Source: Nitrospirales bacterium
GTDB lineage: Bacteria; Nitrospirota; Nitrospiria; Nitrospirales; UBA8639
Assembly (NCBI GenBank): GCA_963555755.3
Contig: OY820905.2
Coordinates: forward strand, 480,001-544,000
Reading direction: 5' to 3'
Length of the DNA: 64,000 bases
Part shown: piece by piece, positions 8,358-20,051 of the stretch
Numbering within the stretch: position 1 is the first letter of the stretch
Layout of the letters: each line of letters opens with the position of its first letter
Notes under the pieces: model-generated
Told to the model about the DNA's origin: nothing
What the model saw: the letters and a program-made list of their open reading frames with translations, nothing else
Database searches by the model: none
Position numbers and translations under genes: made by a program

Positions 8358-9733
8358 TGTAGTGGTCTAGTTGAATGGGACACCTGGAAAAGGGACAATA
8401 CCCATCAGGAGGGGTTCAATGGAAACAAGACGACGACAGTACACAGCCGCGTTCAAGCGCGACGCCGTGGCCCTGGTTATGGAACAAGGCTATACCCTGA
8501 CCCTAGCCGGCCAGAATTTAGGGATCACGGCCAAATTGCTCTCGCGCTGGAAGCGCGAACAGCAGCACCATCAGGACGCGGCCTTCCCCGGCCAGGGGCA
8601 TCAGACGCCCGAGCAATCCGAATTACGCATGTTACGCGAGGACAATCAGCGCCTACGGATGGAGCGCGACATCTTAAAAACAGCGACGGCCTTCTTCGCC
8701 ACCCACAACATCTGAGATATCCCTTCATTCACCGTGAACGGCAGACGTATCCTGTCCGGCTGCGCTGTGCCGTCTTCGAGGTGAGTGCCAGTGGGTATTA
8801 TCGGTTTGTGCAACGTGGAGGAGGCCGGGCGCAGGCAGATCCAGCGCTGATTCTTCAGGTTCAGCAACTCCATCGGGCCTCTCGTCGCAGCTAGGGCTCG
8901 CGCCGACTGAGTCAGGCCTTGCAACAGGCTGGGCATGCGATCGGTCGCGATCGGACACGGACCCTGATGCGCCAGGCGAATCTGAAGCCCACGGGCACAG
9001 GGCGGTGTCCGCAGACGACGGATAGCCGCCATGCCTTGCCCCTTGCCCCTAATATACTCAACCGGCAATTTACGGTCGCGGCGCCTAATCGAGTGGGGGG
9101 CAGTGATATCACCGCCCTCTGGACCCAGGAAGGGTGGCTGTATCTCGCGATTGTGGTGGAGCTGTTTTCCCGCAAAGTCGTGGGCTGGGCCTGTGCGGCC
9201 TCCATGGCGACGTGCTGAGTCTCGCAGGCCTTGCAGAGGGCCATTGGGCAACGTCACCCCAAGCCAGGGTTGCTCCATCACTCGGATCGCGGCAGTCAGT
9301 ATGCCAGTGCGGAGTATCAACAGCAGCTCCGGGACGCCGAGATGGGGTGCAGTATGAGTCGGAAGGGCAATTGCTATGACAATGCGGTTGTGGAACGGGT
9401 ATTCCGGAGCCTGAAAGAAGAAGGCTTCACGGAGGAACCACCCGACACACGGGCCGAGGCCACGCTAAGCGTGATTGATTACCTGGCGATGTTTTATAAT
9501 AGTGAGCGGCTTCACTCGACCTTGGGCTATCAGAGTCCCAATACGTTTGAGGCACAGGCGGCGAAGACCGATCAAGGGAATACTCCAGTATCAACCAAGC
9601 CGTGATCGGCCAGTGAGGGGCAAATATGGACGACAAATTTTTCCAACACCCAGGCCAAATCCTCAGCGAGGGCCGTCTGGGCTTATTCACACAATCCCCT
9701 TTTCTCCCTGTCCATTTTCACTGGACCACTACA
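8358..9733 (+). mobile_element. IS3-family element, complete ends, inactive orfB
   Basis: IRs TGTAGTGGTC.AGT / ACTGGACCACTACA; 3-bp GAT duplication (8355-8357, 9734-9736); orfA 8419-8715; orfB with HSDRGSQY and GNCYDNA but in-frame stops at 8892 and 9216. Confidence 0.92.
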
Positions 9734-9788
9734 GATTTCTCCCGTGCACCTCGGGCTAGGCAGGCGGGGTGACGTCACCCCGCCCGCC

Positions 9789-9823
9789 TCAAATCCTCCC
9801 TACCCCCCTTTGCAAAAGGGGGC
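9789..9823. repeat. REP-like palindrome; inverted partner of the copy at ~8323-8357 that the IS3 interrupts
   Basis: aaatcctccctacccccctttgcaaaaggggg vs cccctctttgccaaagaggggtgaggggagat|tt. Confidence 0.6.
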
Positions 9824-10026
9824 AGAAAAGGACCAACGGTTGCACCAACATGGGATTGATACCATTGTAGTCAGGATTGCGAATCGGTATGGGTAGAACC
9901 ATGTATTCGGTATGTTCCAGAACAACTTTCTGCCAAGGGAATGGATCGACAGTATTCAGCGCCCAAGGAGGAATGAGCGTGAGCGGCCAAAAGATCCAGA
10001 AGTCTAGGCCACTCTAACGCGGAAAA

Positions 10027-11075
10027 GGGGTCAAGTCACTTGCTTCATGATAAAAAAGTAGTTAGACGCTGGTCATGCCTCGACCTCCTCGGATGGAATA
10101 CGAGCATGCGGTGTATCATGTCATGAATCGTGGCCGGGCTCGGCACCCGGTGTTTCATGATGCCCGGTACTATCGAGCCTTTCTCGACACGTTGGCCGAG
10201 CTGCATACCCGCTTCCAGGGTGTGATTCATGCCTATTGCTTGATGGGCAATCACTATCATGTCTTGCTGGAAACTCCCAGGGCCAATCTCAGTCGCATGA
10301 TGCGCCATCTTAACGGGGTGTATACGCAACGGCATAATCGTCTCAAACGTACTGATGGCTCTTTGTTTCGAGGCCGCTATAAAGCCATTTTGGTGGAGCA
10401 CGATGCCTATTTGCTCCACGTGTCCCGGTATATCCATCGAAACCCTCTTGACGGCATACGGCCGCTGGTCACGAATTTGTCTGATTATCCCTGGTCGAGC
10501 TATCCGACATATATCGGTCAAGCGAAGCCGGCACCGTGGTTGTGCCGGGAACCGACGTATCGCCTGCTTGGGCATGTGCACCGGTATCGCGGGTATGCTC
10601 GCTACGTGCTAGAGGGCAACGATAAAGAAATCGAGTATTTTTACCAACGGGGTAATAGGGCGGCCATTATGGGAGGGCAGGAGTTCAAATCTTGGGTCTA
10701 TGACGAATTACTGCCGGATCTTGAAGCGGAGGAGAAAGGGCAGGTGATCCAGCCGAGTCTTGCAATCGACACTATGATCACTGGGGTGGCCAAGGCCTAT
10801 CGCACGACACCAGACCGGCTGACCATGGTAGTGAAAGGGCCGCAAAAAGGGAATGAGGCTCGGAAACTGGCGATGTATCTGTGTCAGGAATTAGCGGAGG
10901 TGAAACTTCAGGACATTGCGCCCTGCTTCAATCTGCGTCATAGCGGTTCGGTGAGTTTTATCACCCACCAGGTCAGAAAGAAGAAACGAGACGAGAAGGG
11001 ATTTGCCGCTAGAATGAACGAGGTGATTGAAAGTATTCTGAAGCAATCGACTTGACCCCTATTTTGACCCCTATT
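10027..11075 (+). mobile_element. Y1/HUH transposase element with GGGGTCA subterminal inverted repeats (STIR-type)
   Basis: GGGGTCAAGTCACTTGCTTCA (10027-10047) / TGAAGCAATCGACTTGACCCC (11039-11059), 19/21; 12-nt tandem TTGACCCCTATT at the right end. Confidence 0.7.
10075..11055 (+). CDS. REP-associated-type Y1 tyrosine transposase with C-terminal DnaA_C-like HTH
   Basis: YHVMNRG, YCLMGNHYH (HUH), LFRGRYK, YIHRNP, YPWSSY; C-terminal ARKLAMYLC..LQDIA..F..HSGSV. Confidence 0.88.
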   Translation: MPRPPRMEYEHAVYHVMNRGRARHPVFHDARYYRAFLDTLAELHTRFQGVIHAYCLMGNHYHVLLETPRANLSRMMRHLNGVYTQRHNRLKRTDGSLFRGRYKAILVEHDAYLLHVSRYIHRNPLDGIRPLVTNLSDYPWSSYPTYIGQAKPAPWLCREPTYRLLGHVHRYRGYARYVLEGNDKEIEYFYQRGNRAAIMGGQEFKSWVYDELLPDLEAEEKGQVIQPSLAIDTMITGVAKAYRTTPDRLTMVVKGPQKGNEARKLAMYLCQELAEVKLQDIAPCFNLRHSGSVSFITHQVRKKKRDEKGFAARMNEVIESILKQST

Positions 11076-11076
11076 T

Positions 11077-12493
11077 AAGGCCCAGGTTGGCTATCGACGA
11101 CCACGACATCGCAGCGGGCCACCCAATGTCGCTGTTCCAAACCGGCTGCAGCGTCAGTTCAATACCGCCACACCGAATGAGGCGTGGGTGACAGATATCA
11201 CGCATAGTGCGCCCAGCCTTCGGAGGTGTCATGGAAGACGCTACCGAAGCGCGAGCATGTTTGGAATGTGGAAGGACTAAACAAGGAGGAATAAGTCTGA
11301 TACCCGCTTTTCGCTACGGAAAAGCGAGAGCCGAAACGGCGGTGACCTGCTATGCACTGGCAGGGTGACGAAGCCCGTGGGAAACGGGGCGTGAGGCGAA
11401 GCCGTTACGCCAAGATGCGTCTCTAGGCTGAGTGCGGGAAGGTTGAGGAACACGAACCGGTTGATGCGCGTCTGTGGGTTGAAATGTCACCACCTCCTAC
11501 ACGGCTTACCAGGAGGTTCACGGACAGATATCGGGTACAGGTATGAGCTGATATCGGGTGGCGGTGCGAGATGTATGCGTACCACCACTGAGCGGCGTGG
11601 AGTGCGTAGCTAGCACGCGGCGTCCGTGACGACTTGCGGCAAGCAAGGGCAAAGATTGCGACCGGCAACCTCCCCCGCATGGTGGAGTCCAACATGTGAA
11701 CTGGGGAAGGCGATGGTGAGGATGCCAAGGGAGTGTGATCCCGATGCCCCCATCGCTGGCGGAGCTCCCGTAGTAGTCGGAGACAGGGAGAGCCTGTTAC
11801 AGGGCGAAGGGGAGCAGCTTCGTCGAGGTGTGAAGCAGACTAGCTGACTGGAGAGAGGTGAAGACCTTTGAGAATCAGTGAAAGGCAACACACATGTATG
11901 GCCATGAGCCACGACGAGGTGGAGAGCCGTATGCGCTGAGAGGCGCATGTACGGTTCGGGGAGGAGAAGCAGGGAAATAGTTCGACTACGCCCTGCTTCT
12001 TACTCCACTCCTCACCCATGAGGGTTGGCTGTATCTAGCGGTGGTCGTGGACTTATTCTCCCGGCGCGTGATTGGCTGGTCAATGAAGTCCAGAATTACC
12101 AAGGAACTGGTACTGGATGCGCTATTGATGGCGGTATGGCGGCGCAACCCCAAAACACAAGTGATGGTGCATGCAGACCAGGGTAGCCAGTACACCAGTT
12201 ATGACTGGCAAGACTTTCTGCGCGAACATGGCCTGGAGGGAAGTACGAGTCGGCGCGGGAACTGTCATGACAATGCAGTTGCCGAGAGCTTTTTCCAACT
12301 ACTCAAGCGCGAGCGAGTTCGACGTCACGTCTACACAACTCTCGATGAAGCCCGCAGTGATGTATTTGATTATATAGAGATGTTTTACAACGCTTGGCGC
12401 CACCACGGTTTTAATAACCAGCTGTCGCCGGTAGAGTATGAAGAGCAGTACGAAAAACGGCTGGCGAGCGTCTAGAGAACTGGGGGCGATTCA
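11077..12493 (+). mobile_element. 5'-truncated IS3-family element (orfB) interrupted by a group II intron
   Basis: PNRLQRQF..PNEAWVTDITH|ILTHEGWLYLAVVVDLFSR, HADQGSQY, GNCHDNAVAESFF; right IR ends ..GGCGATTCA at 12493. Confidence 0.85.
11207..12008 (+). mobile_element. ORF-less group II intron (802 nt)
   Basis: 5' GTGCG; domain V GAGCCGTATGCGCTGAGAGGCGCATGTACGGTTC (11924-11957); domain VI with bulged A12002; 3' AC; removal restores the IS3 reading frame; EBS1/EBS2 complementary to the 5' exon. Confidence 0.93.
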
Positions 12494-12611
12494 ATCGACA
12501 CCTACCACGGAGCGGGCTAAGGACAAATTGTTGCAATTACGAGTAGAGAGCAATAAAATCAACTCAGCTGGTAAACTGAAAGCGTAGCGTGTGTCAGCTG
12601 AGACCGTAAAA

Positions 12612-12985
12612 CCGGATCATACAGAATTTAGTGTTCTGGTAAATTTGTAGCTGCTGCATCTCTCCTGAGCCAGGTCGGAGGATGCTTCTTCCTGGCGTTC
12701 TGGACCATTGCGGCGTGAGAAGAGGGCACGACCTGCCTGCGCGTTTGCGCGTTGTATCGGCTACAGCGCGTAAACGCGCAGGCGCTCCAGGCCTGCGTAG
12801 CCTTCGGCGGAGTAGGCTCGGCGGAGGCTGGTGAGATCGTGCAGCGACACAAGAAAGGGAGGGTGGCCATTAGCCACCAAATAGAACGCGGAGGGCTACA
12901 GACTGCTCCTTGATCTTTGGAACAGGGTTATTGGTGGGCGATTACTAATTCATATTTCTGGAACCCTAAATTCCGTATGACCGGG
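12612..12985. mobile_element. 374-bp element bounded by 25-bp inverted termini
   Basis: CCGGATCATACAGAATTTAGTGTTC / inverted CCCGGTCATACGGAATTTAGGGTTC, 21/25. Confidence 0.6.
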
Positions 12986-13041
12986 AGTTCGCCCAAATCA
13001 TGGGTGATTCTCGGAAGGGTTCACACCTAGGAGGAATCAAA

Positions 13042-13524
13042 ATGCAATTCTCGGCGAGAGGGCTTACGGTAGCATGTAGTATCGCTGTGCTAGCAACCCT
13101 GGCTAACCCGGCAGCCGCGGCAGCCGGGGCAGCCTTTGCTGATCAGTACTTTCTCAAAGTTGATAACATCAAAAACAAAAGCTGTGAGAAAAGCAGCCCA
13201 GACATCCTTGTTAAGATCTTTCACTGGAACAACTCGACCAATTCGAGAGGGGAAATCCAGAAACAACAAGATGTCGCAGCAGGAAAAAAGGGTACTTTCG
13301 TCTTCGAAATAATTGACCAGAAACCCAAGTATAGGTACATGGAAGTAAGAGCGTACGGTACAGCTGGAAAGATCGCAAAAAGCGTTCTCAAGATGAAACC
13401 ATCTCAGGGTGGGGTGTATTGGAATCAATTCGATGGTTATGAAGGCGACAACTTCAATATCAACAAGAAAAAGAGCGGTGGTTACAGCTTCAACCTGGAT
13501 GTCAAGATGAAAGTTTGCCCGTAG
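13042..13524 (+). CDS. Hypothetical secreted protein
   Basis: AGGAGG RBS at 13029; Sec-type signal peptide (MQFSARG-hydrophobic-AAA); Lys-rich mature part with 2 Cys. Confidence 0.7.
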   Translation: MQFSARGLTVACSIAVLATLANPAAAAAGAAFADQYFLKVDNIKNKSCEKSSPDILVKIFHWNNSTNSRGEIQKQQDVAAGKKGTFVFEIIDQKPKYRYMEVRAYGTAGKIAKSVLKMKPSQGGVYWNQFDGYEGDNFNINKKKSGGYSFNLDVKMKVCP

Positions 13525-18366: not shown

Positions 18367-18546
18367 GGGCTCGCGAAACAATACCTTCCCATTTTCGCAT
18401 CCCAGCTTCAGGCCATCTTGAGCCGATCTTCACTCGCACAATCCTCCACGTGGGCGTTGCTACGCCTGCGGTTTTGCTCCCTCAGATCGACTCAATCTGA
18501 CCCAAATCTGGACGGGATGTTATCCAAGGTATTTTTTCACGGGCCC
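18367..18546. repeat. MITE family B (180 bp)
   Basis: TIRs GGGCTCGCGAAACAATACCTT / inverted GGGCCCGTGAAAAAATACCTT; homologous to 36964-37145. Confidence 0.75.
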
Positions 18547-20051
18547 TAATTCGGTTGGACTTGGGTCTCTGGTTCGGCTAAATGCTCGCGGACTTCTTTG
18601 ACGTAGGTTTTGAAGGGGTTGGGCATGGGGAAGGGGGGCTGGCCGCGGAGTTGAAAGATGGACCAGTTGATGACGTAGTGGGGAAAGCGGCGTTCTAGTG
18701 ATGGCTCGAGACTGGGTTCTTCATTCCATTCTTTGCCGACTAATTGACGGATGAGTTCACTTCGACCAAAGGCGCGGGTATTGCGAGGAGGATTTTGCAT
18801 GGCGAGATCGATGGCCGTGTTGGTGGTGACACGTGGAACGCGACCTTCTTCTTCAAGGCCAAAGTACAAACTTTTTTCTGGATTGAGGTTATGATATTCC
18901 AAGTCCAGGCTCTTGAGCCACGGATCATCCCATTCGAGTTTTTCTTCTTCTTTAAACGATTCTAGGAGCCACAGTTTCGAGGCCCAATCAACTCGTCCCA
19001 CCAGTTTCGTGTAATCACCGCGAAGATCACGTAAGACAGACTCCCATTGATCCAGAACCCAATCGGTATCGTCATCCTGTCCGGCATACTGATCTTGAGC
19101 GGCCTTGAGAAAGTCTTCTTGAATATCGATCGCGGATCTTGTCTGCCCATTGGCTAAACGCACGTTCCATTTTCTGGTACTGTCGCGAGAGATATCTTTC
19201 AGCGTTTGAATGGGTTCTTCCAGATCCAGCCCCACCGGAGCATGGCCATCTTCAATAAGCTGGAGCACAATGCCGGTCGTCCCCATTTTCAAGGCCGTGG
19301 CCACTTCAGCCATGTTCGAATCGCCAAGGAGTAAGTGAATGCGTCGAAATTGATTGGGGTCGGCTAATGGTTCGTCACGCGTATTAATGAGGGCGCGATT
19401 GTTTTGTACCCATTCAAAAAAATCATTCACGATATGGTCGGCGCGCTGTGAAATTTGAAATGGCACGGTCGGACTCCCGTGTTGATCTCGAAGGCCAGAC
19501 CCTTTCTGGGACAGTTGTTCAATCGGTACCCATCCATCATAAATCTCTGTGACACCAATGCGTCCAGCGCCGGTAAAAATTTGGCGCGTCACCAGAAACG
19601 GAATGAGTTTATTCAAACCTTTGAGGTTAAACGGAAAATCGCGTGAGACCAGGTAGTTTTCATGACATCCGAATGTCGCATCGGTTTCATGATCGATATT
19701 ATTTTTGATGAGTGAAATATTCTGGTCCAGGTTGAGTTCGACCAACGTACGTTGGAGCAACCGATCGCCGGCACGGTCCGATGCTACAATATCGGCGAGG
19801 GTGTGACATTCCGGGGAGGCAAACTCCAAATGACCCATATCCACATACAGTCGCCCGGCATTGAGCAAAAACCCGCCATTGCCAGGAGGTTCATCGTAGC
19901 CGCGATAATGCAGGTCCAAGACGCCTTGCTTGCGAACGCGAAATACTTGATCGATTACACGATGGGCGAGCCAGGAGGGCGAGTGATCAGGATCATCGCT
20001 GTTGATAAGGAGTCCGTACTCTGTCTCAATACCGAAAATGCGTTTGAACAT
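18546..20051 (-). CDS. pafA: Pup/UBact--protein ligase
   Basis: GIETEYG, NAGRLYVDMGHLEFASPEC, GCHENY, NTRDEP, LDLEYH; last gene of the proteasome operon. Confidence 0.88.
   Translation of the reverse strand: MFKRIFGIETEYGLLINSDDPDHSPSWLAHRVIDQVFRVRKQGVLDLHYRGYDEPPGNGGFLLNAGRLYVDMGHLEFASPECHTLADIVASDRAGDRLLQRTLVELNLDQNISLIKNNIDHETDATFGCHENYLVSRDFPFNLKGLNKLIPFLVTRQIFTGAGRIGVTEIYDGWVPIEQLSQKGSGLRDQHGSPTVPFQISQRADHIVNDFFEWVQNNRALINTRDEPLADPNQFRRIHLLLGDSNMAEVATALKMGTTGIVLQLIEDGHAPVGLDLEEPIQTLKDISRDSTRKWNVRLANGQTRSAIDIQEDFLKAAQDQYAGQDDDTDWVLDQWESVLRDLRGDYTKLVGRVDWASKLWLLESFKEEEKLEWDDPWLKSLDLEYHNLNPEKSLYFGLEEEGRVPRVTTNTAIDLAMQNPPRNTRAFGRSELIRQLVGKEWNEEPSLEPSLERRFPHYVINWSIFQLRGQPPFPMPNPFKTYVKEVREHLAEPETQVQPN

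Follow-up and report, generated by a model that had tools for sequence, protein, structure and literature searches.

How does a group II intron that carries no reverse transcriptase (RT) gene come to lie in the catalytic motif of an IS3 transposase, and can it still move? The question is raised by positions 11207..12008 of the window, that is, of the whole 64,000-nt stretch of Nitrospirales DNA analysed here, where a preliminary description had claimed an ORF-less group II intron. Our results show that the intron is real: six domains are present, and its exons rejoin in frame. The intron, its exons and the transposase gene upstream are placed as follows (window coordinates).

10075 to 11055, + strand: Y1 (REP-associated-type) tyrosine transposase (PF01797; NF047646 below cut-off)
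11077 to 11206, + strand: 5' exon, IS3 orfB remnant ending WVTDITH (left boundary approximate)
11207 to 12008, + strand: ORF-less bacterial class A group II intron, 802 nt, 58% G+C
12009 to 12493, + strand: 3' exon, IS3 integrase core, stop codon at 12473-12475, putative right end closing CA at 12493

As had been claimed, the intron begins with GTGCG at 11207; it ends with CAC at 12008, and both ends fit the GUGYG 5' and AY 3' criteria. Excision of 11207-12008 in silico gives WVTDITH-I-LTHEGWLYLAVV in a frame that stays open to the stop codon at 12473-12475, which bears out the claim that excision restores the IS3 frame. Two alternative junction pairs also keep the frame; the combination of GTGCG with the end of domain VI is unique to 11207/12008. 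The 3' exon matches PF00665 (Pfam, E 6e-26) and scores 201 bits against the IS3 model NF033516 (cut-off 160). The IS3 host has neither orfA nor the left end nor the remaining orfB, and is cut ~130 bases upstream of the intron by the end of the Y1 transposase element. Since the host is 5'-truncated, splicing would yield no transposase.

The right end of the Y1 element abuts the truncated IS3, and the element is not part of the intron. It spans 10024-11076, has a C-terminal DnaA-like helix-turn-helix and short inverted ends, of which the right one is doubled, and the genome holds 47 occurrences of its 10-base end motif. Further downstream lie a 174-aa ORF (13000-13524) with a signal-peptide-like start, for which a Pfam search gave no match, and a 501-aa ORF (18546-20051), which we take to resemble a Pup deamidase/ligase family protein.

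The loss of the ORF is not a product of assembly collapse, an explanation that the preliminary description had left room for. Contigs of two public runs, X1 (11564-11974) and X11 (11854-12600), span the ORF-less junction with 0 differences. Runs with small word shares represent relatives and are uninformative on the window's organism.

The domains of the ribozyme were assigned as follows.

11212 to 11705, + strand: domain I, basal helix 11212-11216 with 11701-11705
11399 to 11404, + strand: alpha strand, partner alpha' at 11502-11507 (named by analogy)
11710 to 11756, + strand: domain II (covariation count)
11764 to 11815, + strand: domain III, two helices, 100% and 98.7% paired
11818 to 11919, + strand: domain IV without ORF; basal helix, DIVa stem-loop (hairpin 11854-11869), RT gene remnants
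11924 to 11957, + strand: domain V, AGC triad 11925-11927, GAGA loop, AY bulge
11960 to 12008, + strand: domain VI, bulged A12002, 3' end CAC

The Rfam search that had been proposed as a check returned RF00029 over domains V and VI (11922-12008) at 66.3 bits, compared with a gathering threshold of 40; this is the sole gathering-level Rfam match in the window. A lysine riboswitch match at 11815-11919 (20.6 bits, gathering 30) was rejected as a chance likeness of DIVa. The AGC triad of domain V and the bulged A of domain VI are as had been described, A12002 being the seventh base from the 3' end, and domain IV, given earlier as ~100 nt without an RT ORF, measures ~102 nt. It retains DIVa and, from the RT gene, a few codons of the start as well as the final ones; the former start codon ATG has become AGG at 11883-11885, and the deletion junction lies near 11893-11897.

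Domains I-III, whose folding had been named as a test of the claim, fold as expected. The whole intron has a fold z of -4.7 compared with 20 shuffles. Furthermore, 152 hand-named pairs in 22 helices are paired in 91.4% of cells over 30 ORF-less introns (30 of the 37 complete ones, with seven close repeats excluded), and slid controls are paired in 38–45%. These pairs were named from the window's own sequence; for two hairpins the alignment between lineages is poor (52.5% and 74.7%). Two-sided changes occur at 88 of the 152 pairs. For instance, the basal helix of domain I is paired in 98% of cells with two-sided change in 4/5 pairs, and the alpha/alpha' helix in 98.9% with two-sided change in 5/6 pairs.

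The intron belongs to bacterial class A. Compared to E.c.I4-14 it is 68.7% identical over 578 nt (domain I to DIVa) and 89.9% over domains V and VI, the reference being a copy that the supplement of PMC3522654 labels as E.c.I4, class A. The two share the EBS1 hexamer and the IS3 insertion site, which lies behind the D-x-T-Y codons of the transposase. Copies that bear an RT and are 86–90% identical over domain I to DIVa occur in genomes of the same family (G225, G186, G465), and the RT of the RT-bearing relative L072 is 67% identical to that of E.c.I4. A distant BLAST search found relatives in 1,943 plasmid records and in 2,324 of 5,426 E. coli genomes, where the top matches mostly stand beside ltrA. 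E.c.I4 and S.f.I1 are described as class A introns without endonuclease (PMC3552965), and their DIVa hairpin is like that of the window intron, in whose remnant both the start and the end of a class A RT gene have left traces. E.c.I4 differs in its length, 2270 nt compared with 802, the window intron having no RT ORF and a destroyed start codon. Moreover, relatives of the window intron also occupy IS6 transposases, and its genome holds no cognate RT. The window intron is an ORF-deleted bacterial class A intron of the E.c.I4 type, a non-autonomous derivative. Its proposed target, the DNA for the first catalytic Asp motif of IS3 transposases, is likewise supported, and is already the published target of E.c.I4, which inserts at specific positions of IS629, IS911, ISEc16 and ISEc31 (PMC3522654).

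How the intron recognises this site had been described less well. The preliminary description placed EBS1 at TATGCG (11574-11579) and EBS2 at TGATATC (11549-11555), and we compared these with other registers in 43 introns with exons (36 ORF-less and 7 with all or part of an RT). Two elements matter here.

11527 to 11555, + strand: hairpin 5' of d3, loop 11535-11547, likely place of the true EBS2
11558 to 11588, + strand: d3 stem-loop with a 9-nt loop, delta A11571, EBS1 11572-11577

Over the 43 introns, TATGCG is paired in 52% of cells, and with shuffled exons also in 52%. It is complementary to the exon in the window's copy, and its last two bases close the d3 stem; hence the register could serve the window's copy only if that stem opens. 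Two positions upstream, 11572-11577 pairs with exon positions -1 to -6 in 82% of cells. Its Watson-Crick pairing is 0.69 compared with 0.62 in shuffled exons, and 0 of 2000 exon shuffles reached as high a value, a covariation statistic that is overstated in that the 43 rows are mutually related. The corresponding IBS1 is 11201-11206, with a His codon where Tyr is usual. Because the host IS3 codes His in place of Tyr, EBS1 of the window has an A-C mismatch at -4, where 40/43 introns have A-T. A second EBS1-like hexamer lies at 11540-11545, in the loop of the hairpin 5' of d3. Its pairing with exon positions -1 to -6 amounts to 79% of cells in the 43 introns, and it is perhaps an alternative EBS1 or a by-product of EBS2.

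The proposed EBS2 did not hold up either. TGATATC is the 3' arm of the hairpin 11527-11555, whose arms covary in relatives, and its exon pairing (49% of cells) equals that of shuffled exons (48%). The true EBS2 likely lies in the loop 11535-11547 of this hairpin, where two registers are paired in 62% and 67% of cells, neither of them clearly with Watson-Crick covariation.

The claim that the intron is not of the IIC type stands, given its 802 nt, its six-base covarying EBS1 and the lack of a terminator-like site in window positions 9700-12700. Subgroup IIA is recognised by delta-delta' pairing with the 3' exon and by a branch A seventh from the end. The branch A of the window intron fits, and A11571 (delta) can be matched with T at +1 of the 3' exon, a pairing found in 40/43 introns without covariation. 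An EBS2 in the terminal loop is a further IIA criterion (PMC8643678), and class A has been listed with IIB-type variants (PMC4028801).

Is this copy a single accident, or one of a family? Compact relatives were sought with a pattern of a DIVa hairpin 41–101 nt before domain V, which matched 22 genome loci, 37 metagenome loci and no viral contigs. L093 and L098 (false matches in a coding gene) and L106 (a duplicate of L074) were excluded, and L144 and L149 were rejected as chance 13-mer matches. The resulting set of 60 ORF-less loci, which includes the two own copies as well as L074 and L081, falls into 30 clusters at 90% identity. Because the pattern required DIVa, its presence in every collected copy is no evidence that it is conserved. 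Both ends are present in 37 loci of 781–832 nt, and 35 of these 37 complete copies lie in the first-Asp motif of IS3- or IS6-type transposases (the IS6 assignment was checked for two). Outside transposase genes, L104 and L122 are divergent ORF-less class A introns whose 3' exons begin with CAT; these are retargeted lineages. L085 contains a head-to-tail tandem at the DNA level, in which the 5' end of a second class A intron adjoins the 3' end of the ORF-less one.

In a tree built without domain IV, ORF-less and RT-bearing tips are interspersed, and therefore the ORF was lost repeatedly. One such loss can be followed through unlike hosts. The 54-nt domain IV remnant of the window intron (A-type), together with a distinctive basal helix, recurs in L111, L114, L133, L134, L139, L143 and the 5'-truncated L155, which makes eight copies with the window's. 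The window intron is 90–93% identical to the first six of these, while its exons are 40–57% identical to theirs, and the hosts of all eight are mostly only 38–70% alike. Similarly, L134 and L143 share 98.9% over 463 nt with 3' exons 64% alike, L091 and L129 are 96.5% identical with exons at 61%, and L081 and L100 are 98% identical with 5' exons at 42%. In some metagenome pairs that are nearly identical, only one of the two exons is shared, perhaps through chimeric assembly. Copies of the Paraburkholderia type sit in IS6 hosts, are mostly 94–99.6% alike and form a clade with support 96/94.

The fold was also followed within these lineages. In the A lineage, 35/47 variant pair alleles keep pairing, where 0.34 was expected. 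The Paraburkholderia-type clade gave only 13/25 (p = 0.057), and the other sets 7/7 and 5/7.

The same deletion cassette in unlike hosts indicates that the A lineage likely moved after it had lost its ORF. Hence the best explanation, to which we give rather more credit than to all doubt against it, is that an intron of the E.c.I4 type lost nearly all of its RT gene, kept six domains and DIVa, and belongs to a non-autonomous lineage that likely spread by retrohoming among different IS3 elements with the help of a class A RT acting in trans.

An alternative explanation is that the deletion allele spreads by recombination, where RT-bearing class A introns home into new IS copies and are then converted by exchange with an ORF-less copy. 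Recombination has left traces in the family and could account for part of the pattern: the A-type domain IV occurs on two domain I haplotypes, one of which is common to the RT-bearing L072 and L073, the A-type copies are not one clade on the tree without domain IV, and in the local clade the informative sites form a mosaic with blocks shared with RT-bearing copies. However, the Paraburkholderia-type and L091-type sets are clades without an RT-bearing member among those sampled, and the RT-bearing plasmid copies nearest to the Paraburkholderia type are only 88–91% identical. In addition, conversion requires a near-identical RT-bearing copy at each site. We therefore regard recombination as the principal route as possible but doubtful.

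If a class A RT moved the lineage, is one still at hand? The preliminary description asked for sister copies and an RT-encoding parent. One sister was found. This ORF-less copy (G000:C1:317626-318455, equal to L060:1501-2330) is 88.6% identical to the window intron, is 830 nt long and has a different deletion junction. Its host is a different IS3, interrupted at the same motif and carrying a one-base frameshift in orfA. The DIVb stub of this copy is able to form a GAGA-capped hairpin, and L107 is 97.6% identical to the copy with a junction 9 nt shorter. A parent was found neither by DNA nor by protein search: the own genome (G000, 99.4% complete, 2 contigs) holds no class A RT protein or ORF DNA. 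It has 34 RT matches above the Pfam cut-off, which align to the L072 RT at about 30–39%, and none of them is class A.

The genome does offer a target. An intron-free IS3 pseudogene at G000:C1:271558 is 90–94% identical to the host of the sister copy, and its identical target is unused. The census of IS3 target sites in the genome was made with a profile. Within the window, a frameshifted IS3 at 8371-9605 has three genome copies, and Ala-Leu replaces Tyr-Ile at its intron target; in the two other copies 2/6 EBS1 positions pair, and no copy carries an intron.

Other introns were noticed as well. Four further matches to domains V and VI, at G000:C1:4002659, 823938, 3131341 and 1016644, have a CGC triad but lack an upstream RT and are a second ORF-less family. 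Moreover, several introns (regions of G000:C1:1027320 and 1253389, and L128) carry an interruption by one other element at an identical position in domain V, and one RT intron type lies inside the RT genes of others (C1:5910-8292, 799543-801925 and 3055714-3058209).

A similar scarcity of helpers is found across the 20 genomes with the compact form (19 from the genome pattern search and G000), many of which are drafts or MAGs, with G000, G095 and G413 in one or two large pieces. Only one of the 20, G418, holds a full-length class A RT, and G408 and G409 hold clear fragments. In the 10 genomes whose ORF-less copy is complete, a full-length class A RT was found in none, and each of them has one or more other RT matches. 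Bursts of near-identical copies were seen in none of the genomes checked: two copies occur in G000 (88.6%) and in G406 (95.5%), and one each in four others. Helpers may come from outside. Plasmid copies 96% identical to the Bradyrhizobium ORF-less form include one annotated with ltrA, which makes a visiting helper plausible.

Could these introns do without a class A RT altogether? In its widest form this would make them pan-bacterial second-order parasites of many origins that exploit the catalytic motif of IS3 and IS6 and are mobile through non-class-A RTs or protein-free splicing, a view that we consider improbable; if true, such mobility would overturn the rule that makes a group II ribozyme dependent on the protein with which it co-evolved. 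The narrower proposal, that RTs of other intron classes, or protein-free splicing with generic RT activity, serve the ORF-less introns, has the absence of full-length class A RTs from the 10 complete-copy genomes, their other RT matches and the 34 matches of G000 on its side. Yet the empty matching site has stayed uninvaded in RT-rich G000, copy bursts are lacking, and published trans-acting IEPs serve closely related introns in the cases described (PMC2882425, PMC4424553). Loss of the helper is a simpler account of the absent class A RT, and we judge service by non-cognate RTs to be distinctly improbable. Least credible of all is a one-off relic, an RT-bearing intron that reached this site by homing, had its ORF deleted there and has been inactive ever after. 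The truncated host IS3, the IBS1 mismatch at -4 and the random partial ORF deletions known in the family (L080, L084) would suit it. Yet seven further copies, whose hosts are unlike, have the 54-nt remnant and the basal helix, with a two-sided change within that helix. Derived bases of this kind would not be common to identical deletions that arose independently, so that the shared cassette largely refutes a relic.

Spread by a class A RT in trans thus being our preferred reading, family knowledge suggests how it would proceed. Transcription of the IS would supply intron RNA, whose DIVa would be bound by a class A RT/maturase, and the RNA would splice through A12002. EBS1 (11572-11577) would pair with the T-Y-I codons next to that of the first catalytic Asp, on their 3' side, and delta would pair with T at +1. 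By reverse splicing the lariat would then enter this motif in a further IS3 or IS6, to be reverse-transcribed there. The helper may have been a class A intron with an RT that visited on a plasmid or IS, or else a resident lost since.

The preliminary description inferred an intron mobilised in trans. For some time in the past this is likely, in view of the shared cassette in unlike hosts. Its present mobility is doubtful, because the genome has no cognate RT, the IS3 is a 5'-truncated remnant and the matching empty site is unused. The exon-exon joint is absent from contigs of the RNA runs X1, X2, X3, X16 and X17 at low depth. The intron contigs of RNA run X1 are identical to both genomic copies at depth 3–4 and may be DNA. 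With a truncated host, an unused empty target and no spliced RNA seen, the window's copy is probably dormant now. A 272-nt contig from the X3 RNA library joins the 3' end of a relative (window 11920-12008) back to its 5' part (11324 onward). The record length leaves ~117 further nt, the distance from the intron start, and the contig fits either an excised circle or a head-to-tail tandem.

Several known systems resemble this intron in part. TeI3 of Thermosynechococcus elongatus likewise has one DIVb deletion that leaves N- and C-terminal remnants and DIVa (PMC2882425). There, a breakpoint shared by copies at different sites was taken to indicate spread after ORF loss, and the same holds for the deletion described here. 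In contrast, TeI3 is of the CL/IIB1 type, with 17 copies in one genome beside driver IEPs and mobility shown by experiment (PMC2882425). The class A ORF-less copies occur singly or in pairs per genome, have many origins, extend over phyla and mostly lack a resident helper, and their mobility is inferred from sequence. C.te.I1 of Clostridium tetani is also ORF-less in a genome with no related IEP gene (PMC4424553). However, it is domesticated and alternatively splicing in a host gene, whereas the window intron lies in a decayed IS and shows signs of spread. HYERs, which are ORF-less IIC introns (PMC11754743), are natural ORF-less bacterial group II ribozymes as well; compared by their description, they differ from the window intron, which is about 800 nt long, is not IIC and recognises a coding motif through EBS1 instead of a stem-loop. 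A further paper (PMC12584367) concerns another intron.

Class A homing into IS3 and ORF-less introns that ride on a helper RT (TeI3) are known already. We found no description in the open-access literature of an ORF-less class A family that extends across phyla, occupies IS3 and IS6 and mostly has no helper resident in the genome, but such copies may be among those in the supplementary lists of PMC8919778. ORF-less bacterial introns were said in the preliminary description to be uncommon. They are indeed a minority, but not exceptional, with 888 among 13,041 introns in the count given by PMC8919778.

For the host, the window's copy is of little consequence. For the family, its wide recurrence without a resident helper runs against the statement in PMC4424553 that bacterial ORF-less introns are rare and nearly always share the genome with a related IEP. 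These copies offer a natural set of ribozymes of about 800 nt for probing the specificity of helpers and the persistence of non-autonomous introns beyond them.
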